A stretch of DNA of 64,000 nucleotides, taken from Minisyncoccota bacterium. Lineage in GTDB: Bacteria > Patescibacteriota > Minisyncoccia > Phycocordibacterales > JAQTLZ01. Positions 5,859-63,608 of the stretch are shown in pieces. The number at the start of each line of letters is the position of its first letter. Position 1 is the first letter of the stretch. The notes beneath the pieces are model-generated. The model was not told the DNA's origin, did not search any database, and saw only the letters and a list, made by a program, of their open reading frames with translations. A program made the translations under genes and the position numbers. The DNA is taken from assembly GCA_028711065.1 (NCBI GenBank), contig JAQTSY010000001.1, forward strand, positions 86,610 to 150,609, given 5' to 3'.

Positions 5859-7631
5859 ATGCAATCCGAAGAAATTCGAAGCCGATTTCTAGAGTTTTTT
5901 AAGAAACGCGGGCATACAATTATTCCGTCGGCATCTCTCGTACCGGAGAATGACTCGTCCGTCCTTTTTACCACTGCCGGAATGCATCCGCTTGTGCCAT
6001 ATATTCTCGGAGAGAAACATCCTGGAGGAAAGCGTGTCGCTAATGTTCAGAAATGCGTTCGCACCCAAGATATAGACGAAGTCGGAGATAACACTCACGA
6101 CACTTTTTTTGAAATGCTCGGCAATTGGTCCTTTGGCGATTATTTCAAAAAAGAAGCGATTGGCTTTAGCTACGAATTTCTGACCAGCAAATCTGAAGGG
6201 CTCGGTCTCGATCCAAAGCGGATCTATGTAACTTGTTTCGAAGGCGACGAGAATGCGCCAAAAGATACCGAATCGGCAGAAATCTGGGAATCAATAGGAA
6301 TTCCAAAAGACCGTATCTATTTCCTTCCCGCAAAAAATAATTGGTGGCAAGCAGGGGAGAACGGCCCATGCGGCCCCGACACGGAAGTTTTCTACGACCT
6401 CACCAAAAAAGGTCTGGGTAAAATGACAAAAGAAGAGTACCTCGAAGCTGATAGCAAACAGGAGGTTGTAGAAATCGGCAACGATGTCTTCATGGGTTAT
6501 GAAAAAAAGAACGGGGTTGTGGTTGGAAAACTCAAACAGCAAAATGTGGATTTCGGCGGAGGCTTTGAACGACTCTGTATGGTTTCGCAAGGAGTCACAA
6601 ATGTTTTTGCTACTGACCTTTTTCAGCCGATAATGGCAAAAATAAATGAATTCACAACTTTGGCTGACGAAAAAGCGAAGAGAATTGTCGCGGATCATAT
6701 TCGCACTGCTGTTTTCATGATAGGCGACGGAGTCATTCCATCAAATACAGATGCTGGATACGTTTTACGCCGGCTTCTTCGGCGAGCAGTTCGCTTTGCA
6801 GACAAATTAGAGATGAAGCACGATTCGCTTTCTTGGATTACAGAAACGGTTATCGAAAAATACGGCCACATTTACAAAAATCTTGCGGAGAAAAAAGATG
6901 AAATTAAAAAAGAGATCGATGCGGAAGAGCAGAAATTCAGAAAAACCCTCGCAAGCGGACTGAAATTGTTTGAAAAGATCTCTGAAAAGAATATTTCTGG
7001 AGAAGAAGCCTTCGACCTTTTCTCGAGCCATGGTTTTCCGCTTGAAGTAACTCTGGAGCTTGCAAAAGAAAAGGGTAAGACAGTGGACGTTGCCGGTTTC
7101 AACAAAAGATTCAAGGAACACCAAGAGCTTTCCCGAAAAGGTGCGGAACAGAAATTTAAAGGGGGATTGGCAGGACATTCTGATAAAGAGCTCCAATATC
7201 ATACGGCTACACACCTCTTGAATGCGGCTCTTCATGCAATCCTCGGAGAACACGTGATGCAGAAGGGAAGTAATATCACTCCTGACAGGCTTCGCTTTGA
7301 TTTTGTTCATACGACAAAGATGACTCCGGAAGAGATCAAAAAAGTGGAAGATTTTGTAAATGAAAAAATTACCGAGAAATTACTAGTTTCATTTGAAGAA
7401 ATGCCAATAGAGAAGGCTCGCGAGCTCAAAGCCATCGGAGTCTTTGGCGACAAATACGGCGAATTGGTAAAAGTCTATTCCATCGGCAGTGAAAAAACCG
7501 GCATTGTGAGCATGGAGCTCTGCGGTGGCCCACACGTCACCAACACATCCGAATTAAAGGGAACTTTCAAAATCCAAAAAGAAGAAGCCGTCTCCGCCGG
7601 TGTTCGCCGAATCAAAGCAGTACTCGAGTAA
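5859..7631 (+). CDS. alaS: alanine--tRNA ligase (compact form lacking the C-Ala domain)
   Basis: Class II AlaRS catalytic core with the tRNA-recognition domain, plus the editing-domain motifs 'HTATHLLNAALHAILG' and 'CGGPHV'. Only 590 aa. Confidence 0.85.
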   Translation: MQSEEIRSRFLEFFKKRGHTIIPSASLVPENDSSVLFTTAGMHPLVPYILGEKHPGGKRVANVQKCVRTQDIDEVGDNTHDTFFEMLGNWSFGDYFKKEAIGFSYEFLTSKSEGLGLDPKRIYVTCFEGDENAPKDTESAEIWESIGIPKDRIYFLPAKNNWWQAGENGPCGPDTEVFYDLTKKGLGKMTKEEYLEADSKQEVVEIGNDVFMGYEKKNGVVVGKLKQQNVDFGGGFERLCMVSQGVTNVFATDLFQPIMAKINEFTTLADEKAKRIVADHIRTAVFMIGDGVIPSNTDAGYVLRRLLRRAVRFADKLEMKHDSLSWITETVIEKYGHIYKNLAEKKDEIKKEIDAEEQKFRKTLASGLKLFEKISEKNISGEEAFDLFSSHGFPLEVTLELAKEKGKTVDVAGFNKRFKEHQELSRKGAEQKFKGGLAGHSDKELQYHTATHLLNAALHAILGEHVMQKGSNITPDRLRFDFVHTTKMTPEEIKKVEDFVNEKITEKLLVSFEEMPIEKARELKAIGVFGDKYGELVKVYSIGSEKTGIVSMELCGGPHVTNTSELKGTFKIQKEEAVSAGVRRIKAVLE

Positions 7632-35401: not shown

Positions 35402-35716
35402 TTGACACTATTTTTACCTCCTGTATAGTAAATACAGATTCTTTACAACTGCAATATCTACGTATAGGTCCCTTGGCTTAGGCTTAAGGGATTGGGCCTA
35501 TGCAGTTCGCGTAAGCGAGCAAGATGATTTCTGCGCAAGTGGAAATCCGGTCTCCTCCGTTACAAGGATAATCGATGTCTGCCGAAAGGCGTATGAGTCG
35601 ATGAGTGGAACAAAAAAGACCCGCTCGGGTATTTTTTGTTCCTGAAACCCAAGGTGGTACCGCGGAAAACCCGCCCTTGATGCATATTTCGATATGCGTC
35701 GAAGGCGGGTTTTTTG
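35402..35716 (+). promoter_or_regulatory. T-box riboswitch leader (probable tRNA-Trp specificity) with its own sigma70-type promoter
   Basis: Promoter TTGACA-N16-TATAGT at 35402-35429. F-box 'CCGTTA' at 35558-35563. T-box sequence 'aaGGTGGTACCGCGG' at 35651-35665 (13 of 14 matches to AGGGUGGNACCGCG). Terminator 'cccgccc..ggcggg' followed by TTTTTT at 35670-35716. Candidate specifier 'UGG-A' lies in 'gcaagUGGAaauc'. Downstream are trpB-trpA-trpS. Confidence 0.75.
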
Positions 35717-35844
35717 CGTGTGATTGTAAAAATGGTTCATTTAAAAAGAGAGATTTCACCAAGTCAACGGAGTTCGCTTCCAATGTGGCAAGCGATCCCG
35801 AAATTACCGAGCGTCACCCGAAGGCGAGTAGAAAGGAAAAAACG

Positions 35845-36039
35845 ATGGAAACAAGAACTGACCGGACAGAGCTCCTTGAGCTTCTCCTCAAGGAACACCT
35901 CACCCCAGAGGAAGAGGCGAAGCTCGCTCAGAACGAGGGCGTGGCCAACGGACTCGTGGATACAATGCGGGGACGTTTGGTGAGTTTTGGTCTCCGCCCC
36001 AAAAACGGCGAGAAAGATCCACGCTGTTGGGCGCAGTAA
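35845..36039 (+). CDS. small GC-rich hypothetical ORF (64 aa) between the T-box leader and trpB
   Basis: RBS-like 'gaaaggaaaaaacgATG'. About 57% GC versus 40% background. Followed by hairpin 'ggcctcgtgcaatcacgacgaggcc' at 36064-36088 with a weak U-tract. Confidence 0.35.
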   Translation: METRTDRTELLELLLKEHLTPEEEAKLAQNEGVANGLVDTMRGRLVSFGLRPKNGEKDPRCWAQ

Positions 36040-36133
36040 CAGAAGTACTCTCTGAGAGATAAGGGCCTCGTGCAATCACGACGAGGCCTTCTATTAAAAT
36101 CAAATGTTTTCAGCTACTATTAGTTAAAATGCA

Positions 36134-38181: not shown

Positions 38182-39126
38182 ATGAAAAAAATCTTGCTTT
38201 CAGGGGTAAAGCCGACTGGCCGGCCTCATATCGGCAATTATTTCGGCGCAATGAAGCAATTTGTGGATCTTCAAGAGAATCACGAGAGCTACATTTTCAT
38301 CGCCGATCTCCACGCGCTCACTACAGTTCAGAATAAAGAAGAGATGAGCGAAAATATTTTGGGCGTTGCGCTTGATTATCTTGCAATCGGACTTGATCCG
38401 AAAAAAGTTACGCTTTACAAACAATCAGATGTCCCGCAAGTGGCCGAGCTTGGCTGGATATTCAACTGTCTTACTACGATGCCGTACCTTTCTCGCGCGC
38501 ACGCCTACAAAGATGCCGAGGCGAAAAATAAGGAGGTAAGCGTTGGTCTCTTTGATTATCCGCTTCTTATGGCGGCTGATATATTGATTCAAGACGCAAA
38601 CGTCGTACCAACAGGCCTCGACCAGAAACAGCATATTGAAATCACACGGGATACTGCGGAGAAATTCAATAGAATTTTCGGAGAAACGTTCAAAATGCCA
38701 GAACCGCTTATTCTCGAATCAGTAAAAGTGGTTCCAGGAATTGATGGCCAGAAAATGTCAAAGAGTTACAACAATACTATTTCACTTTTTGCCACAGACG
38801 AAGAAATCAAAAAAGCTGTAATGGGAATTGTCACGGATTCAAGCGCGGGAGTGCCAACCAATGTATATGCGATTCATTCACTCATCAGAAACAAGACAGC
38901 ACTCGACAAGTTGTATGAAGAGAAAAAAGGAAAGTACAAAGATCTGAAAGACGCGCTTATAGAAGATTTGATTGCGTTCATAAAACCAATGCGAGAAAAA
39001 AGGGAAGCGTTGGCGAAAGACAAAAAAGCAATCATCAAAATTCTGAAAGGAGGGGGCGAGCGAGCCCGCGAGCGAGCCGAAGCAAAGATGCAGATTGTAC
39101 GAGAGAAAATAGGAGTTGCACTCTAG
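38182..39126 (+). CDS. trpS: tryptophan--tRNA ligase
   Basis: 'GVKPTGRPHIGNYFGA' (the HIGH motif), 'KMSKS' and a length of 314 aa typical of TrpRS. Confidence 0.9.
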   Translation: MKKILLSGVKPTGRPHIGNYFGAMKQFVDLQENHESYIFIADLHALTTVQNKEEMSENILGVALDYLAIGLDPKKVTLYKQSDVPQVAELGWIFNCLTTMPYLSRAHAYKDAEAKNKEVSVGLFDYPLLMAADILIQDANVVPTGLDQKQHIEITRDTAEKFNRIFGETFKMPEPLILESVKVVPGIDGQKMSKSYNNTISLFATDEEIKKAVMGIVTDSSAGVPTNVYAIHSLIRNKTALDKLYEEKKGKYKDLKDALIEDLIAFIKPMREKREALAKDKKAIIKILKGGGERARERAEAKMQIVREKIGVAL

Positions 39127-39134
39127 AAGAAAAG

Positions 39135-39356
39135 TGGTATTATTTATCCATGCCAACGACCCGGCTGACACCGGCGAGGATGAAGAAAGAACGGAGTGAA
39201 GCCAAGGCCTAAATCGGCCAAAGCCGATCGGCCAAGTAGATTCTTCCGGGTAAGCCCGATATAGCGAGACAAGAGAAAGAAAGCGAGGTGGCACCGCGAC
39301 ACTCGTTCGCCCTCGCAAAAACAAAATTAATTTTGTTTTTGCGAGGGCGATTTTCT
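39135..39356 (+). promoter_or_regulatory. T-box riboswitch leader (probable tRNA-Asp specificity) upstream of aspS
   Basis: Extended -10 'TGgTATTAT' at 39135-39143. Hairpin 'ccggCUGACAccgg' at 39161-39174 and 'gGAUg' provide Asp-codon specifier candidates. T-box 'GGTGGCACCGCG' at 39287-39298, whose N=C pairs with the G73 of tRNA-Asp. Perfect terminator hairpin 'cgccctcgcaaaaac...gtttttgcgagggcg' plus a U-tract at 39308-39356. Confidence 0.7.
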
Positions 39357-39398
39357 TTTATTAACTAATCTGTACTACGATATATCGTAGTGAAAAAA

Positions 39399-40802
39399 AT
39401 GAAAGGACGAACATACATTGGTGAGTTGAAAGATATGGCAGGAAAAGAGGTGATGATAGCCGGCTGGGTGGATGTTCGGCGCGATCAGGGAAAACTTATC
39501 TTTTTTGATTTCCGCGATATGACGGGAACGGTGCAGGGCGTTATTTTACCGAAAGCAACCGAAGCTCACGCAGTAGGAGAAAAATTGCGTTCAGAATGGG
39601 TTGTCCAGGTCCACGGAAAAGTAAACGCTCGTCCAGAAAAAAATGTTCAAAAAGAGAAACTCAATGGCGCGGTAGAAATTGAAATTCTGTCAATACAAGT
39701 CCTAAACGAAGCGACAACTCCAGCATTTGATGTTGCGGGAGCGGGCTCTGAAATAAACGAGGAAACCCGGCTTAAATATCGATATCTCGACCTCCGTCGT
39801 CCTCGGATGCAGAAAAATGTTCGAGCACGGCACAAAATCCAGCAACTCGTCCGTAATTTCTTTACAGCAGAAAAATTCACCGAAATTGAAACTCCGCTCC
39901 TTTCTGCAACAACTCCGGAAGGTTCGCGAGATTATGTAGTTCCATCACGCCTTGAACCAGGGCATTTCTACGCACTTCCACAATCACCCCAGCAATACAA
40001 ACAGCTTCTTATGTCCGCTGGATTCGAAAAATATTTCCAATTTGCCCGATGTATGCGAGATGAAGATACGAGAGGGGATAGACAGCCGGAATTTACCCAA
40101 CTCGATATGGAGATGAGTTTTGTCGAACGCGATGATGTGATGGCGATAAATGAGAAAGTGCTTATCGAAGTGGTAAAAACGCTCTATCCTGAAAAGAAAA
40201 TCCAACAAATTCCTTTTCCGCGAATGACATATGACGAAGTAATGAAAAAATATGGAGTTGATAAGCCGGATATCCGAGAAAATAAAGAAGATCCGAATCT
40301 TTTGGCATTTCTCTGGGTAATTGATTTTCCGTTCTTTGAGAAAGATGACAAAGGAGGATGGACATTTACTCATAATCCATTTTCACGCCCGCAGAAAGAG
40401 CATACGGAATGGCTTATGGAAAAGAAAAATATCGGCGAAATAAAAACAACGCAGTACGATGTAGTGTTGAACGGCTACGAGATTGGTGGGGGTTCTATCC
40501 GAAATCACGACCCCAAAGCACTCAAAAAAGTGTTTGAAATTATGGGATATTCCGAAGAGAGAATTCAGCATAATTTCGGCCATATGCTCACAGCACTTGG
40601 CTCCGGCACACCCCCGCACGGAGGAATTGCGTGGGGTTTTGATCGATTTCTTATGCTTCTTCATAACGAACCAAATATCCGCGAGGTTATTCCATTCGCG
40701 AAAACTGGAGAGGGAAAGGATCCGATGATGGGCGCGCCGACGACGATTACCGACGAACAACTTCATGAACTCGGCATAAGCATCACCAAAAAGAAAAAAT
40801 AA
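39399..40802 (+). CDS. aspS: aspartate--tRNA ligase (compact, no GAD insertion)
   Basis: OB-fold N-terminus and class II core with the AspRS-specific 'LPQSPQQYKQLLM'. 467-470 aa. An alternative GTG start at 39390 is possible. Confidence 0.85.
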   Translation: MKGRTYIGELKDMAGKEVMIAGWVDVRRDQGKLIFFDFRDMTGTVQGVILPKATEAHAVGEKLRSEWVVQVHGKVNARPEKNVQKEKLNGAVEIEILSIQVLNEATTPAFDVAGAGSEINEETRLKYRYLDLRRPRMQKNVRARHKIQQLVRNFFTAEKFTEIETPLLSATTPEGSRDYVVPSRLEPGHFYALPQSPQQYKQLLMSAGFEKYFQFARCMRDEDTRGDRQPEFTQLDMEMSFVERDDVMAINEKVLIEVVKTLYPEKKIQQIPFPRMTYDEVMKKYGVDKPDIRENKEDPNLLAFLWVIDFPFFEKDDKGGWTFTHNPFSRPQKEHTEWLMEKKNIGEIKTTQYDVVLNGYEIGGGSIRNHDPKALKKVFEIMGYSEERIQHNFGHMLTALGSGTPPHGGIAWGFDRFLMLLHNEPNIREVIPFAKTGEGKDPMMGAPTTITDEQLHELGISITKKKK

Positions 40803-40805
40803 TTC

Positions 40806-41534
40806 GTGGAAAATCAGGGCTACAAAATAAAGACGGAGAAATTCGAGGGACCGCTCGACCTTCTGCTTTCTCTTATCGAAAAGCGCAAACTGCTCATCAA
40901 CGAAATTTCGCTCGCCCAAATCACCGACGATTATATCGGCTATATAAAAAATAACGGCAAGGAGACGTTGGGGGAGAGTGCCAACTTTATTTTAATCGCC
41001 TCCACGCTTCTCCTTATCAAATCCCGCTCGCTGTTGCCCAATCTTTCGCTGTCCGAAGAAGAGGAGCAGTCAATTAATGAGCTCGAACGCCGCCTGAAAA
41101 TCTACAAAGAAATCAAAGAGCTCTCTGTACATATTGCCGAACGTTTCGGAAAAGAGATGATTTTCGCCCCGCAGATGCGGAAATTCGATCCTGTTTTCTC
41201 GCCAGACAAAGATACAACGCTTCCGAATATGCTCTCTGCGATGGAGCGGGTGCTTCAGAGCTTGCCGAAGAAAGAATTTCTACCGAAAGCAGTCGTGAAA
41301 AAAATCATAAGCCTCGAGGAGATGATAGGGAATCTCACGGTACGCATCCAAAAAAGCTTGAAAATCGGCTTTAAAGACCTCGCAAAAGTCGGAAAGGATG
41401 ATAAAATCAATGTCATCGTTAGTTTTCTGGCAATTCTTGAACTGGTAAAACAGGGTGTTGTCTCTGTTGTGCAAGAATCAAAGCATGACGATATTATGAT
41501 CGAATCGAATGATCTCGGAGTACCGAGATACTGA
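40806..41534 (+). CDS. scpA: segregation and condensation protein A
   Basis: 'FEGPLDLLLSLIEKRKL...EISLAQITDDY' ScpA N-terminus. GTG start immediately after the aspS stop. Confidence 0.8.
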   Translation: MENQGYKIKTEKFEGPLDLLLSLIEKRKLLINEISLAQITDDYIGYIKNNGKETLGESANFILIASTLLLIKSRSLLPNLSLSEEEEQSINELERRLKIYKEIKELSVHIAERFGKEMIFAPQMRKFDPVFSPDKDTTLPNMLSAMERVLQSLPKKEFLPKAVVKKIISLEEMIGNLTVRIQKSLKIGFKDLAKVGKDDKINVIVSFLAILELVKQGVVSVVQESKHDDIMIESNDLGVPRY

Positions 41535-41627
41535 GTAAAAAGGCAAAAGGAGAAAGTCGAAAGTCCGAAAATATTAAATATAATTAAATTAACTTTACAC
41601 TTTTCACTTTAAACTTTTAACTATTTT

Positions 41628-42188
41628 ATGGAATTAGACGCAACATTAGAAGCAGTTTTGTTTTTCAAAGGCGAAGCTGTTTCGATAAAAAAACTTTCTC
41701 AAATCCTCGAGAAAAATCCTGCGGAAATCCAGGATGGTTTGAGGGTGCTTGAAGAAAAGTTAAAAACCAGAGGAATCCGGCTTCTGCGTATTGGAGATGA
41801 AGTGGCGCTTGGCACAGCATCGAAAGCAGATGAAATAATAGAAAAACTCACCAAAGAAGAACTTTCAAGGGATATTGGGCGTGCGGGACTTGAGACACTT
41901 TCCATCATTATTTACCGTGGGCCGATTGCAAGAAGGGAAATCGACTACATCCGAGGAGTGAACTCAACCTTTATTCTTCGAAATCTCCTTATTCGCGGAC
42001 TTGTGGAAAAAGTTCAGGCTGAAAAAGATCAGAGAAGCTTCCTCTATAAACCAACGCTTGAACTCCTTTCGCATTTGGGACTCGAAAAGATCGAAGATTT
42101 ACCAGAATATACGAGAGTGAAAGAAGAGATAAAGAAGTTTGAAGAGAGTGAAAAGCAGACAGAAGAGGGGGAAAATGGGACGCACTAA
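41628..42188 (+). CDS. scpB: segregation and condensation protein B
   Basis: Winged-helix ScpB pattern 'LEAVLFFKGEAVSIKKLSQIL'. Confidence 0.8.
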   Translation: MELDATLEAVLFFKGEAVSIKKLSQILEKNPAEIQDGLRVLEEKLKTRGIRLLRIGDEVALGTASKADEIIEKLTKEELSRDIGRAGLETLSIIIYRGPIARREIDYIRGVNSTFILRNLLIRGLVEKVQAEKDQRSFLYKPTLELLSHLGLEKIEDLPEYTRVKEEIKKFEESEKQTEEGENGTH

Positions 42189-42196
42189 AAGAAATT

Positions 42197-44128
42197 ATGA
42201 AGCAAATACTTATTTTTGTTGCTGTTATTATCATCCTCGTTGTTGGAGGATTTTTTTTGCAAAACAAAAATAATCTCGAGAAAGTCCAGAATATAATTAC
42301 GAGAGCAACTCCGACCCCGACACCAACACCCGAAATTGACCCAAGCTCGCTTACCTGGACACAGACAAAAACAAACGCGGAAGGCTGGCCAAAACGCGAC
42401 TCTCATTCGGTATTTGTATTTGATAATAAGATGTGGGTGCTTGGCGGGCTTGATGCCGATAGTTCAAAAATTGCCGGAGTACCTGATTATGAATCAGCAA
42501 TTTATTACAACGATATTTGGAATACTTCAGACGGCGTGAATTGGACGAGAGTAGTGGAACATGCCGATTTTCCTTACATCCGCTCGGCATCGGTCGTCAA
42601 TTTCAAAGGAGTGCTCTATATGTACGGAGGCTGGAGCCCGCATGATGGGCTTGAATATAAAAACGGTATTTGGAGCTCGACTGATGGAATTCATTGGAAA
42701 AAAGTGGTTGAGAAACCGGAATATCCTGAAAGGGAGGGACAAATCGTGCTCGAATGGAATGGGAAACTGTGGCTCGTCGCGGGTGTGGATTATTTTGGGA
42801 GGAAAACGTTCAACGACGTTTGGTCTTCTGACGACGGGATCCACTGGACAGCGGCAACCACAGACGCCCCTTGGCATTCAAGGTGGGACCACGCGCTCGG
42901 TGTATGGAACGGAAAAATGTATATCGCCGGAGGAATGAATTTTCACGGAGTTGGCTACAGCGATGAATGGGTCTCAAGCGATGGCGCTCATTGGGACCTC
43001 GTAAGTCCGAACGCTGCATGGGGAGAAAGGCAAGGACAAGAAATAGTAAATTACCATGGATACATGTGGCTCATTAGTGGGCTTCATTCTGCAAGCAACG
43101 AGGGTAAAGGTGACGCGTGGTATAGCACTGACGGAATTGAATGGAAAAAAGCTTCGGACGATTACCAATGGAAGGGTAGGGAAGACCACGGCGTCATTGT
43201 GTTCAACGATAAAATCTGGGTAATGGGAGGAATGGACAGCGATTGGCACTGGAATGGAGATGTGTGGTCTTCCGGTTTTTTGCCGATGTTTAGCGCACCA
43301 AGAGAAAAAATATCGCCAACACCATCACCAGAACCCACAGTAGATCTTTCAAAGCCGGACGTTTCAGCACTTGAATATTTTTCCATTCTTTTAGATGCGC
43401 AAGGGAAACAGACAATCCTCGCGGAGAAGAATAAAAATATGCCGGTACCAATTGCAAGCATAACCAAACTTATGACAGCAGTGATTGCAAGCGAAGAGCT
43501 GCCTGCAGACAGAAACATAACCGTACCAGCAAGCGCTCTAGCGGGGAAGGGAAGTGCGGGAGAAATAAAGGCTGGAGAAACATTTTCTCTGAATGACCTG
43601 CTTTCTATACTTCTTCTTCCTTCCGATAACGATACTGCGGAACTTTTAGCGCAAACAGTTGGTGAAGAAAAGTTTATTAATCTCATGAATAAGAAGGCCC
43701 AAGAGATCGGAATGACTCACACAAAATACGTAAATGCCATGGGACTTGATAACGGAACTGCAATTGATTCAAATCAGTCTACAGCTGAAGATCTTTCTAA
43801 ATTGGCTATCTATATTATTAAAAATCATCCAAAGATTCTTGCGATAACCGGCACAAAAGAAAAAACTGTTTCAGATACCGCAGGAATACAGCATACGCTC
43901 AAGTCTACAAACCATATGTTTGATATTAAAATGGCGGTTGATGTTCTTGGAGGAAAAACTGGAGAAACGCCACTTGCGAAGAAAAACCTTGTTCTCATCA
44001 CGAACGGATTTTCTCCCCAATCTTCTAGCCCAGATGACCGCATGATTTCGGTTGTTCTCCATTCAGACGATAATTTTTTTGATATGCAAAAACTTATATT
44101 CTGGATAGTAAGCAACTGGAAAAAATAA
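42197..44128 (+). CDS. membrane-anchored beta-propeller / D-alanyl-D-alanine carboxypeptidase (S11, PBP5-like) fusion protein
   Basis: N-terminal TM helix, then five or more ~47-aa repeats with 'W.S.DG..W' and 'GG' (Kelch/Asp-box-like). The C-terminal domain carries 'SITK' (SxxK), 'SDN' and 'KTG' serine-peptidase motifs. Confidence 0.75.
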   Translation: MKQILIFVAVIIILVVGGFFLQNKNNLEKVQNIITRATPTPTPTPEIDPSSLTWTQTKTNAEGWPKRDSHSVFVFDNKMWVLGGLDADSSKIAGVPDYESAIYYNDIWNTSDGVNWTRVVEHADFPYIRSASVVNFKGVLYMYGGWSPHDGLEYKNGIWSSTDGIHWKKVVEKPEYPEREGQIVLEWNGKLWLVAGVDYFGRKTFNDVWSSDDGIHWTAATTDAPWHSRWDHALGVWNGKMYIAGGMNFHGVGYSDEWVSSDGAHWDLVSPNAAWGERQGQEIVNYHGYMWLISGLHSASNEGKGDAWYSTDGIEWKKASDDYQWKGREDHGVIVFNDKIWVMGGMDSDWHWNGDVWSSGFLPMFSAPREKISPTPSPEPTVDLSKPDVSALEYFSILLDAQGKQTILAEKNKNMPVPIASITKLMTAVIASEELPADRNITVPASALAGKGSAGEIKAGETFSLNDLLSILLLPSDNDTAELLAQTVGEEKFINLMNKKAQEIGMTHTKYVNAMGLDNGTAIDSNQSTAEDLSKLAIYIIKNHPKILAITGTKEKTVSDTAGIQHTLKSTNHMFDIKMAVDVLGGKTGETPLAKKNLVLITNGFSPQSSSPDDRMISVVLHSDDNFFDMQKLIFWIVSNWKK

Positions 44129-50023: not shown

Positions 50024-51358
50024 ATGGCAAACAAACACATTGTTACTCGTTTTGCTCCAAGCCCCACTGGGCTTTTGCATGCGGGGAATTACCGTACTGC
50101 TGTTTTTGCTTATCTTTTTGCTCGTCAAAATAAGGGAAAATTTGTCCTTCGCATTGAGGATACTGATCGAGAGCGCTCAAAGAAAGAATATGAAGAAAAT
50201 GTTATTGAGAGCTTGAAATGGCTTGGGCTTGAATACGATGAATTTTCTCGGCAGTCAGAAAAAGTTGCTGGTCACAAAAAACATCTTCAAAACCTTATTG
50301 AGAAAGGCTTCGCATACATTTCGCACGAAGAAAAAGATGGAAAGCCGAGCGACGTCATTCGTTTCAAAAATCCTGGCACAAAAGTGACATTCAAAGATCT
50401 GATTCGTGGAGAAATAACGATGGATACGACCGACCTTCATGATTTCGTTATTGCTAAAAACTTAGAAGAACCAGTCTGGCATCTGGCAGTTGTTATTGAT
50501 GATTTTGAAATGGGAATTACCCACGTAATTCGTGGGGAAGACCACATTTCGAATACTCCTCGGCAAATCCTCATCCAGAGGGCAATCGGCGCACCAGAGC
50601 CAATATACGCTCATTTACCGCTTGTTTTGGCACCAGACAGGACAAAGCTTTCCAAGCGAAAAGGGGCTTTGGCAATAAGCGAATATCGCGACCGGGGATA
50701 CCTTCCAGAGGCGCTTTTGAATTTTATGGCGCTTCTTGGATGGAACCCCGGGGGAGAGCAGGAAATCTTCAGCCTCAAAGAGTTAGTTGAAAAATTTAAT
50801 ATTGAAAAAATCCAGAAGGGAGGAGCTATTTTCAATGAAGAGAAGCTGAAATGGTTCAATGAAGAATATATGAAAAGATTGCCTGAAAAAGAAATTGGAG
50901 CGCGAGTGTCAGCAGAATTTGAGAAAGCTGGCAAGAAATTTGACCCGCATACAGCCAAAAAAATTCTTCCTCTCATTGTGGACCGAATTTCAACTTTTGG
51001 CGAAGCGAAAGAGATCGCACAGTCGGGAGAATTTGATTTTTTTGAAAACCAACCTGAATACGAAATTGAAAAAGTGCTTGCCAAAAAAGAACCTAGCAAA
51101 ACAAAAACGGCAGAGCGACTTTCAGAAGTTTCAAAACTTCTTGCCGGAGTTTCAGAAGCAGAGTGGAATCAGGCCGAAATTAAAAACGCGGTATGGGACT
51201 ACGCAACGAAAGAGGGGAGAGGGGAGGTGCTTTGGCCTCTTCGCGTCTGTCTTTCGGGACTCGATAAATCTCCGGACCCATTCATCATTGCGGAAATTTT
51301 GGGCAAAACAGAAACGCTCGAAAGAATTAAAGTTGCGATTGAAAAGCTCCACGCTTAA
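50024..51358 (+). CDS. gltX: glutamate--tRNA ligase
   Basis: 'RFAPSPTGLLHAGN' (HIGH motif), 'KLSKRKG' (KMSKS motif); 444 aa. Confidence 0.9.
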   Translation: MANKHIVTRFAPSPTGLLHAGNYRTAVFAYLFARQNKGKFVLRIEDTDRERSKKEYEENVIESLKWLGLEYDEFSRQSEKVAGHKKHLQNLIEKGFAYISHEEKDGKPSDVIRFKNPGTKVTFKDLIRGEITMDTTDLHDFVIAKNLEEPVWHLAVVIDDFEMGITHVIRGEDHISNTPRQILIQRAIGAPEPIYAHLPLVLAPDRTKLSKRKGALAISEYRDRGYLPEALLNFMALLGWNPGGEQEIFSLKELVEKFNIEKIQKGGAIFNEEKLKWFNEEYMKRLPEKEIGARVSAEFEKAGKKFDPHTAKKILPLIVDRISTFGEAKEIAQSGEFDFFENQPEYEIEKVLAKKEPSKTKTAERLSEVSKLLAGVSEAEWNQAEIKNAVWDYATKEGRGEVLWPLRVCLSGLDKSPDPFIIAEILGKTETLERIKVAIEKLHA

Positions 51359-62231: not shown

Positions 62232-63608
62232 ATGCAATCGCTCAAACTCTTCGATACCCTCTCTGGCGAGAAAAAAGAATTCACTCCCCTCTCGGCGCCC
62301 GAGGTGACTATGTATAATTGTGGGCCCACAGTCTACAACTATCTTCATATTGGAAATTTACGGACATTTGTCACGAATGATATTTTGCGTCGAACGCTTG
62401 AATGGAATAAGTACAAAGTAAAACAGGTGATGAACATCACGGATGTAGATGACAAAACCATTCGCGGAGCGCAAGCAGAAAAAGAGTCACTCGCTGATTT
62501 TACAAAAAAGTATGAAGGATTTTTTCTTGAGGATATAAAGGCATTGAACATAGAAATGCCGTGGAATATGCCACACGCGACTGAATACATAACACAAATC
62601 ATTTCTCTTATCGAAAAACTTATCGCGAGTGGAGCGGGATACAAAACAGATGATGGCATTTATTTCGATGTGACCAAAGCCAAAAATTATGGCGCACTTT
62701 CTCGCCTCGAAAAACGCACTGAAACAAAAAGCAGAATTGCGAAAGATGAGTATGACAAAGAAAACCCGAGCGACTTCGCCCTCTGGAAATTTCATAAAGA
62801 AGAAGATGGAGATGTAAAATGGCCGGCGTCCTTCGGGGAGGGCCGTCCCGGCTGGCACATCGAGTGTTCTGCAATGTCCCAAGCGCTCCTCGGAGACACC
62901 ATCGACATCCACACAGGAGGAATTGATTTGATTTTCCCCCACCACACCAACGAAATCGCTCAATCAGAAACAGCGACAGGAAAGCATCCATTTGTAAGAT
63001 ACTGGCTTCATGGAGCATTCTTGAATGTCGCAGAGGGAAAAATGGCAAAATCGGCCGGCAACTTTATCCGTCTTCGAGATTTGAAAGAAAAAGGTATTCA
63101 TCCCCTTTCCTATCGATACTGGCTTCTAAGAGCACACTACCGTACACCTGTCACCTTTAGCTGGGAAGTACTTCAGGGGGCCCAAACCGGATTTGAAAAT
63201 GTCGTTAGAAAAATCGCCGATTTGAAATCAAAAAGTAATTCAGCAGGAAGTGTGATTCCGAATTTTTTTCATTTTGATGAAATAATCAATGATGACCTCG
63301 ATACACCCCTTGGATTAGGCATACTCCACGGTCTCCTTGTGAATGAATCATATACTCCGGCGGATAGGGTTGCAACAGCTCTTTCAATGGACAAAATTTT
63401 TGGCCTTAATCTTAGCGAATTAAGTGAAGAAATAGTAAAAATTCCAAAAGAAATTTTAGCACTCAATGAGCAACGAGAAATTGCCCGAAAAGAAAAAGAT
63501 TGGAAAAAGTCAGACGAGTTAAGAGCGGAAATTGAAAAGCTCGGCTATAAAGTGCTCGATGGAGCAAAAGAAACTACTATTGAAAGAAACTTGTCTTCGC
63601 TTGTATAA
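62232..63608 (+). CDS. cysS: cysteine--tRNA ligase
   Basis: 'HIGN' (the HIGH motif), 'KMAKS' (the KMSKS motif) and Zn-binding Cys residues; 458 aa. Confidence 0.9.

Follow-up and report, generated by a model that had tools for sequence, protein, structure and literature searches.

Which tRNA is sensed by the leader of aspS, the gene for an aspartyl-tRNA synthetase (AspRS), and at which step of expression does that leader act? The question is raised by a 64,000-nucleotide stretch of contig JAQTSY010000001.1 from a Minisyncoccota bacterium, hereafter called the window, in which a first-pass annotation made from the sequence alone had placed an Asp-type T-box immediately upstream of a compact aspS. 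That assignment stands, as a GAC specifier, a bulge reading UGGC and a pair of helices, antiterminator and terminator, that exclude each other identify 39153-39359 on the + strand, between trpS and an aspS lacking the GAD domain, as a genuine T-box leader. Very probably it is a tRNA-Asp-sensing riboswitch that controls aspS by transcription attenuation.

Architecture of the aspS leader

The T-box covariance model RF00230 matched the leader at 39147-39317 (28.1 bits, E=1.6e-4 in a 401-nt search with permissive filters), covering the whole model (1-219) and placing Stem I, Stem II, Stem IIA and the antiterminator in order. The match that the first-pass annotation had proposed as a check was thus obtained, below the RF00230 gathering score of 93 bits. 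All 21 leaders scored, the window's and 20 homologs, fall below that score, and Rfam at its gathering threshold reported no T-box in the window or in the 20 homologous loci. The T-box core GGTGGCACCGCG lies at 39287-39298, exactly where it had been annotated, and GAGGUGGCACCGCG at 39285-98 is an exact match to the last 12 positions of the conserved T-box sequence AGGGUGGNACCGCG. The motif GGTGGNACCGCG occurs twice in the 64-kb window (35653 and 39287) with 0.00 occurrences expected from 100 shuffles, and the hairpin ccggCUGACAccgg at 39161-39174 with its flanking GA/GA kink-turn (K-turn) signature occurs once, with 0 expected from shuffles. The elements of the locus are as follows.

38182-39126, + strand: trpS, the upstream neighbour
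39116-39121, + strand: putative -35-like hexamer TTGCAC within the final trpS codons, 16 nt before the -10 box, assigned from the sequence
39135-39143, + strand: TG-extended -10 box TGgTATTAT, with a predicted transcript start near 39150
39153-39179, + strand: ultrashort Stem I, from the RF00230 alignment
39153-54/39178-79, + strand: C-stem, 2 bp in the window
39155-57, + strand: K-turn bulge AAC, with tandem G.A pairs of 39158-59 with 39176-77, from the sequence signature
39161-64/39171-74, + strand: covarying 4-bp helix of Stem I
39165-70, + strand: Stem I terminal loop CUGACA, which carries the codon
39167-39169, + strand: specifier codon GAC (Asp), with the conserved purine A39170 directly 3' of it
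39182-39246, + strand: Stem II, from the RF00230 alignment (fold z = -2.8)
39182-87/39241-46, + strand: Stem II closing helix (74% paired; double changes in 5/5 pairs)
39188-91 opposite 39235-40, + strand: S-turn, AGAA opposite AGUAGA, with UAGA and AA invariant in 25 leaders
39206-33, + strand: Stem II apical module GGCC-UAAA-hairpin-UC-GGCC
39247-39261, + strand: IIA-like hairpin CGGG-UAAG-CCCG with F-box-like CCGAUA, aligned by RF00230 to Stem IIA
39259-39282, + strand: purine-rich linker (20/24 purines) at the Stem III position
39283-39316, + strand: antiterminator, from the RF00230 alignment, evaluated at -12.9 kcal/mol
39283-88/39311-16 and 39296-99/39307-10, + strand: antiterminator helices A1 and A2
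39289-95, + strand: 7-nt bulge UGGCACC, with UGGC at 39289-92
39307-39350, + strand: intrinsic terminator, a perfect 20-bp hairpin with loop UUAA, from the terminator scan (-32.6 kcal/mol)
39351-39359, + strand: U-tract UUUUCUUUU
39399-40802, + strand: aspS, the regulated gene, encoding a bacterial-type AspRS of 467 aa

Stem I is the most reduced part of the leader. The expected Asp codon was found in an upstream hairpin loop, as GAC in the loop of the ccggCUGACAccgg hairpin; the specifier sits in a terminal rather than an internal loop. The distal platform is absent, with 70/74 positions deleted in the RF00230 alignment and nothing above the codon, and there are just 27 nt from the trpS stop to the K-turn, which include the -10 box. 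The K-turn follows the signature CC-AAC-GA / GA-GG, in which G6, A7, G24 and A25 never or almost never vary, and a C.C apposition separates its G.A pairs from the 4-bp helix. Pairs of the C-stem and helix are 98-100% paired across relatives with double changes in 5/6, the helix appearing as CCGG/CCGG, CCAG/CUGG, GCUG/CAGC, GUCG/CGAC, ACCG/CGGU and others.

None of the 25 leaders departs from A, C and A at these loop positions; variation is confined to the first codon base, G or A, giving G/A-A-C in 38 homologs, and wherever the downstream gene is readable the xAC codon always precedes an AspRS gene. The other specifier frames, ACA (Thr) and CUG (Leu), were rejected: only the G/A at the first xAC position tracks leader type, and ACA is invariant across Asp- and Asn-type leaders, its next base being a paired C.

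Stem III is deleted in the RF00230 alignment and no hairpin was predicted at 39259-82. In several relatives an H-type pseudoknot search found IIB helices of 4-6 bp with differing sequence and modest z-scores. The GGCC-UAAA-[hairpin]-UC-GGCC module of Stem II also recurs inside a three-way-junction Stem I of some relatives (L022, L029, L038), and GCYNAAA-like motifs occur in L085, L101, L102 and L083; the module might be structural and mobile, or it might stand in for a lost tRNA contact.

The read-out is built on strand sharing, with the 5' arm of the terminator (39307-16) also forming the 3' half of the antiterminator. The first-pass annotation was right about a perfect hairpin followed by a U-tract; its length is 20 bp (39307-39350), not the 16 bp given there. 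Since the terminator is evaluated at -32.6 kcal/mol and the antiterminator at -12.9 kcal/mol, the default state is OFF. A terminator of ~20 bp with a U-tract is present in all homologs, and in each of them it is the same segment that the two helices share. The UGGC of the bulge is complementary to G73-CCA, and some relatives carry U at its variable position. The tRNAs for Asp and for Asn both normally have G73.

In 29/34 leaders in which a -10 box was found, it precedes the first paired base by 7-10 nt, and TTGC-type -35 hexamers recur at equal spacing in many homologous leaders. A strict promoter scan missed the leader promoter, whose -35 matches just 3/6. Judged by these sequence signals, the leader is a separate transcription unit with its own predicted promoter, not merely the end of the trp operon. 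The first-pass annotation had allowed that the element might act only as the trpS terminator; the promoter and a conserved, covarying antiterminator alternative show that it is more than that. The terminator scan found none between the trpS stop (39126) and the leader hairpin, so the hairpin would also halt read-through from the trp operon.

From what is known of the T-box family we infer tRNA binding, charge sensing and actual termination, in the following order. Transcription would start at the leader promoter (-35 at 39116, extended -10 at 39135), and the nascent RNA would fold into the ultrashort Stem I, whose 6-nt loop would present GAC and a stacking A, and into Stem II with its S-turn. 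The GUC anticodon of tRNA-Asp would pair with GAC. If the tRNA is uncharged, its 3' G73-C-C-A would pair with UGGC (39289-92) and stabilize the weak antiterminator, which would hold 39307-16, block the 20-bp terminator and let RNA polymerase enter aspS and, apparently, scpA and scpB. With tRNA charged or absent, the terminator would form and transcription would stop at the U-tract (39351-59), trpS read-through ending there too.

Homologs, covariation and the Asp/Asn specifier

A scan with the AspRS protein, restricted to one genome per species, returned 80 loci, all from Patescibacteria (the Candidate Phyla Radiation, CPR) and mostly labelled Paceibacteria/Parcubacteria, with AspRS proteins 59-74% identical. 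An aspS leader with a T-box core is present in 19/80 of these related species, and the reduced Stem I is common to them. Many of the related metagenome-assembled genomes (MAGs) go under the label 'uncultured Candidatus Saccharibacteria', 'Gammaproteobacteria' or 'Bdellovibrionales' and have an AspRS that clusters with Paceibacteria/Parcubacteria; such labels look like submitter mislabels.

A metagenome scan with the Stem I sequence of the window as query, which selects for GAC, gave 27 matches, 21 of them T-box leaders and 6 chance matches in GC-rich coding DNA. An AspRS reading frame follows in 16/21 of these CUGACA leaders, the others running into contig ends or having a short unannotated open reading frame (ORF) first. 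The link between the CUGACA loop and aspartate thus does not depend on the window. The AspRS genes that follow GAC leaders are of two non-orthologous kinds, the bacterial-type without GAD and an archaeal type annotated by NCBIfam as aspartate--tRNA(Asn) ligase.

We built a covariance model, R1, from 25 leaders. It scored 105.4 bits on the window's leader (39153-39320) and recovered 38 homologs from Patescibacteria genomes and metagenomes at 39-121 bits, 13 of them outside the seed; elsewhere in the window it had no full-length match, the first of the window's two T-boxes matching in the core alone. Across the 25 leaders no change is seen in the K-turn G.A pairs, the specifier-loop A-C-A, the T-box core or, within the S-turn, UAGA and AA. 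In the antiterminator form 91.3% of alignment cells are paired, compared with 42-54% when the arms are slid, 17/21 pairs have double changes and 0/500 shuffles reach the observed value; this alignment was fitted to the structure by the model, which is a known bias. It replaced a MAFFT alignment in which Stem II was out of register. The antiterminator helices themselves are 92-99% paired with double changes in 7/10 pairs. The terminator was tested on the unfitted MAFFT alignment and is 88.3% paired versus 36-54% when slid, with double changes in 11/13 pairs. Since both helices covary, antiterminator and terminator are both under selection. As a separate observation, GAC-type leaders share a conserved G.G mismatch in their terminator helix (CCCCUGCGAAUU / AAUUCGGAGGGG in L084, L085, L090, L094, L099, L105 and others) at the position of the pair that closes antiterminator A1, where the terminator of the window is perfect.

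Two GAC-type leaders are smaller still. L001:780-905 and L021:3852-3981 lack Stem II and IIA/B and consist of the K-turn hairpin, a ~26-nt linker, the T-box and the terminator (126-130 nt in total; R1 59-67 bits). They would be among the smallest natural T-boxes.

The codon separates the family in two. GAC (Asp) is found in the window, L001, L004, L021, L033, L050 and all metagenome leaders, which were selected for it, and AAC (Asn) in L014, L022, L023, L025, L029, L030, L037, L038, L040, L041, L045, L054 and L062, and probably L047. In a neighbour-joining tree of AspRS the AAC leaders form essentially one clade with the GAC leaders scattered around it, so specifier switches were few. Compared with GAC-type leaders, the window's Stem I is identical at 22-27/27 positions, and its expression platform is identical to AAC-clade leaders at 36-37/41, a pattern that fits a common ancestor with Stem I later remodelled in the AAC clade.

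Asn specificity in a T-box on aspS is sensible only where the AspRS also charges tRNA-Asn. The AAC leaders of the sister clade therefore suggest that this AspRS family is non-discriminating (ND), and the window's AspRS may be so by homology; the window's leader itself is predicted to read tRNA-Asp. The enzyme is, as had been noted, a 467-aa form without GAD, as Pfam finds only the OB anticodon domain (PF01336) and the class II core (PF00152). Model NF001750 matches it in two stretches with 620 bits, whereas the archaeal-type model reaches 216, which makes it bacterial-type, and the GAD insertion, corresponding to residues 300-419 of Thermus thermophilus AspRS1 and used to define bacterial-type AspRS (PMC4206432), is replaced by ~5 residues. 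All 80 relatives have the same AspRS length. The closest solved AspRS is the discriminating T. thermophilus AspRS1, ahead of ND enzymes, and overall similarity is not a reliable guide to discrimination.

No gatA, gatB or asnS was found among the large ORFs of the 64-kb window; the ten that had been unannotated encode alaS, dnaK, proC, proA, gltX, an M23 peptidase, murF, cysS and two unknowns. In three relatives an unrelated, inserted gene separates aspS from its Asn-type leader: a RhuM/Fic-domain gene at L014:1123-2109 and peptidase C39-like genes at L022:3390-3995 and L023:554-1144. These genes were considered as gatC and rejected on their Fic/RhuM and peptidase C39 identities; they would be under tRNA-Asn control.

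Competing explanations and known T-box classes

Several observations weigh against a working tRNA-Asp attenuator. About 60/80 related species do not have the leader, so it is dispensable, and its RF00230 score is 28 against a threshold of 93. Neither the elbow-binding distal Stem I nor Stem III is present, and the double T-loop that binds the elbow has been called essential in transcriptional T-boxes (PMC7583486) and Stem III integral to aminoacylation sensing by TBDB (PMC7778990). In the window the K-turn C-stem is only 2 bp, and the IIA/B pseudoknot is unsupported (automated H-type search; IIB 2 bp, z = -0.2). A search of the window, the 80 genome loci and the 21 metagenome loci turned up neither a tRNA-Asp nor a tRNA-Asn gene, and for tRNA-Asp, whose GUC anticodon and G73 the model presumes, the count over the window and 107 loci was zero.

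The alternative that survives best, though we consider it unlikely, is that GAC is also read by tRNA-Asn, through a G.U wobble with U36 of its GUU anticodon, with G73 normally shared by the two tRNAs and a non-discriminating AspRS downstream. The presence of AAC at the same loop position in 13-14 orthologous sister-clade aspS leaders speaks for it, as do the near-identical expression platforms of those leaders and the window and the aspartate--tRNA(Asn) ligase enzymes found after some GAC leaders. Wobble at the acceptor contact also occurs in the lineage, in which U opposite G73 is tolerated. However, the window's codon is a perfect match to tRNA-Asp, T-boxes have a strict Watson-Crick preference in specifier-anticodon pairing according to TBDB (PMC7778990), and the Stem II S-turn, which checks pair geometry, is retained. 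If GAC could read tRNA-Asn, the clade-wide switch to AAC would have been needless.

A slightly weaker candidate, and an improbable one, is a decaying relic in which tRNA control has been lost and the terminator serves as the trp operon end and a constitutive attenuator. The truncated Stem I, missing Stem III and weak IIB of the window, the loss of the leader in most relatives and the low RF00230 score would all be expected of decay. Yet 38 leaders, from AspRS lineages with 59-74% identity and in front of two AspRS types, keep the same reduced architecture, with the K-turn, specifier, S-turn and T-box bases invariant and compensatory changes in all helices. The codon always fits the substrates of the enzyme, and a 20-bp terminator that acted constitutively after a promoter and ahead of an essential gene would be harmful.

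Translational control, with the hairpin as a sequestrator as in actinobacterial ultrashort-Stem-I T-boxes, is very hard to sustain. It draws on the tie between an ultrashort Stem I and translational control elsewhere (PMC7583486) and on a GAGGG in the 3' arm of the hairpin. But a U-tract follows the hairpin in all homologs, and the distance from the end of the hairpin to the start codon, 49 nt in the window (ATG) and 26-50 nt in most relatives, is too great for GAGGG to be the ribosome-binding site; these two features rule out the Shine-Dalgarno (SD) sequestration that marks the translational class. Finally, a plain trpBA-trpS terminator with a fortuitous likeness to a T-box can practically be dismissed, as the lack of any other terminator from the trpS stop (39126) to the hairpin is outweighed by motifs with zero chance expectation, a covariance model that fits the full length and homologous leaders that have a non-trpS gene upstream and each their own promoter.

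The tRNA-Asp attenuator can then be set beside characterized T-boxes. With canonical transcriptional members of RF00230 such as Bacillus subtilis tyrS and glyQS it shares the T-box sequence, the 7-nt UGGNACC bulge, strand-sharing helices, a basal Stem I K-turn, a codon followed by a purine, the Stem II S-turn, an F-box-like IIA, a downstream aminoacyl-tRNA synthetase and a default OFF state. It differs in a Stem I that stops at the specifier, with a 6-nt terminal loop and no AG bulge/distal-loop platform, in having no Stem III, in its score (28 bits versus 93) and in its host, Patescibacteria (CPR) rather than Firmicutes. The glyQS-type minimal T-boxes, which have no Stem II or IIA/B, offer another case of natural scaffold reduction, and L001 and L021 are also without Stem II and IIA/B; glyQS keeps a long Stem I with the elbow platform and Stem III, whereas the leaders of this family drop both, the window's keeping Stem II.

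Actinobacterial ileS T-boxes (Mycobacterium tuberculosis ileS; 'class II' in TBDB) have the same truncated Stem I without the elbow-binding double T-loop and the same decoding module of Stem I, Stem II S-turn and IIA. They are Ile-specific, act by translational SD sequestration, keep Stem III and need a solid IIA/B pseudoknot, in contrast to the window's leader, which has an intrinsic terminator, is Asp-specific on aspS, has no Stem III and has an unsupported IIB. Many ultrashort leaders, not all, were reportedly predicted to be translational by Sherwood, Grundy and Henkin in 2015.

The Clostridium acetobutylicum NT-box, on an ND-AspRS/GatCAB operon, also places AspRS tied to the indirect Asn pathway under T-box control, and the AAC leaders of the sister clade appear to follow the same logic. 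The NT-box is said by Saad et al. (2012, 2013) to have a long Stem I, an 8-nt specifier loop and two codons, and to control gatCAB as well. In the window's leader the codon is GAC and aspS alone is controlled. Asn-sensing logic on an ND-AspRS is attributed to the NT-box in papers that cite it (PMC4206432, PMC4574755).

Transcriptional T-boxes have been held generally to require a long Stem I with interdigitated T-loops, ultrashort ones being translational, owing to the limited time for tRNA capture (PMC7583486, 2020), and papers from 2024 and 2025 restate this dichotomy. The TBDB short-Stem-I model was searched in Actinobacteria only, with RF00230 used elsewhere (PMC7778990), and our literature search found no paper joining T-boxes with CPR, Patescibacteria or Parcubacteria. 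With the leaders below the RF00230 threshold, the ultrashort-Stem-I class with a terminator thus seems uncatalogued. A broader proposal, to which we give somewhat less than even odds, is that Paceibacteria (Patescibacteria) carry this uncatalogued class, with an intrinsic terminator and neither elbow contact nor Stem III, its smallest members (L001, L021) dispensing with Stem II to leave a ~85-nt sensor with little beyond codon-anticodon and NCCA contacts, and that the Asp/Asn switch on one orthologous aspS makes the leader an indicator that AspRS is non-discriminating and the Asn pathway indirect.

The main interest of the locus thus lies in a stripped-down transcriptional T-box family with an Asp/Asn switch, rather than in a pair of T-boxes. 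T-boxes are a textbook example of one RNA reading another. A conserved family that joins an ultrashort Stem I to a terminator is a natural test of the kinetic tRNA-capture argument, by which ultrashort forms are viable solely because translational control is under no time constraint, and if the proposal is true the class contradicts the view that transcriptional T-boxes need a long Stem I for timely capture. Compensation could come from a slow or pausing RNA polymerase, from tRNA at high concentration or from contacts newly supplied by Stem II insertions. Riboswitch-type control of translation genes would be present in CPR and missed by Rfam-based annotation, and the riboswitch scarcity reported for CPR genomes may be partly a detection artefact. 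The specifier switch would provide a sequence-only indicator of Paceibacteria that use the indirect Asn-tRNA pathway, and natural T-boxes of very small size are appealing building blocks for engineered switches that respond to tRNA.

The first T-box and the surrounding window

The first-pass annotation had counted two T-boxes within 4 kb and called this unusual for the lineage. Both are real and below the Rfam threshold; the rarity did not hold, given the aspS leader in 19/80 related species. The first is:

35445-35713, + strand: T-box (Trp) including its terminator, upstream of trpB-trpA-trpS

RF00230 matched it at 35445-35681 with a sub-threshold 40.2 bits. Its specifier is UGG (35493-95) followed by G, and a consensus-like promoter lies at 35402-29. 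Its Stem I also has no distal platform, the specifier loop being topped by no more than a 6-bp helix and a loop of 11 nt. The bulge reads UGGU, and the tRNA-Trp genes of three relatives (L006, L062, L063) have G73, so that U faces G73 in the Trp T-box and wobble is tolerated at the acceptor contact in this lineage. Between its terminator and the trpB start are ~420 nt (35714-36133) that hold no convincing ORF, just weak candidates of 84-89 aa whose composition is odd.

In this genome control by T-boxes is gene-specific, as three other aminoacyl-tRNA synthetase genes of the window, alaS, gltX and cysS (5859-7631, 50024-51358 and 62232-63608), have no T-box core and no R1 match. Downstream, aspS is followed after 3 nt by scpA, then by scpB and a penicillin-binding/D-Ala-D-Ala carboxypeptidase-like gene (40806-44128), with no terminator seen, and the aspS T-box may also gate these chromosome-segregation genes. 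A 16-nt perfect palindrome, CTACGATATATCGTAG, lies past the terminator at 39375-39390, 8 nt before the aspS ATG; it is not present in the homologous leaders and could be a small hairpin or a protein-binding site.

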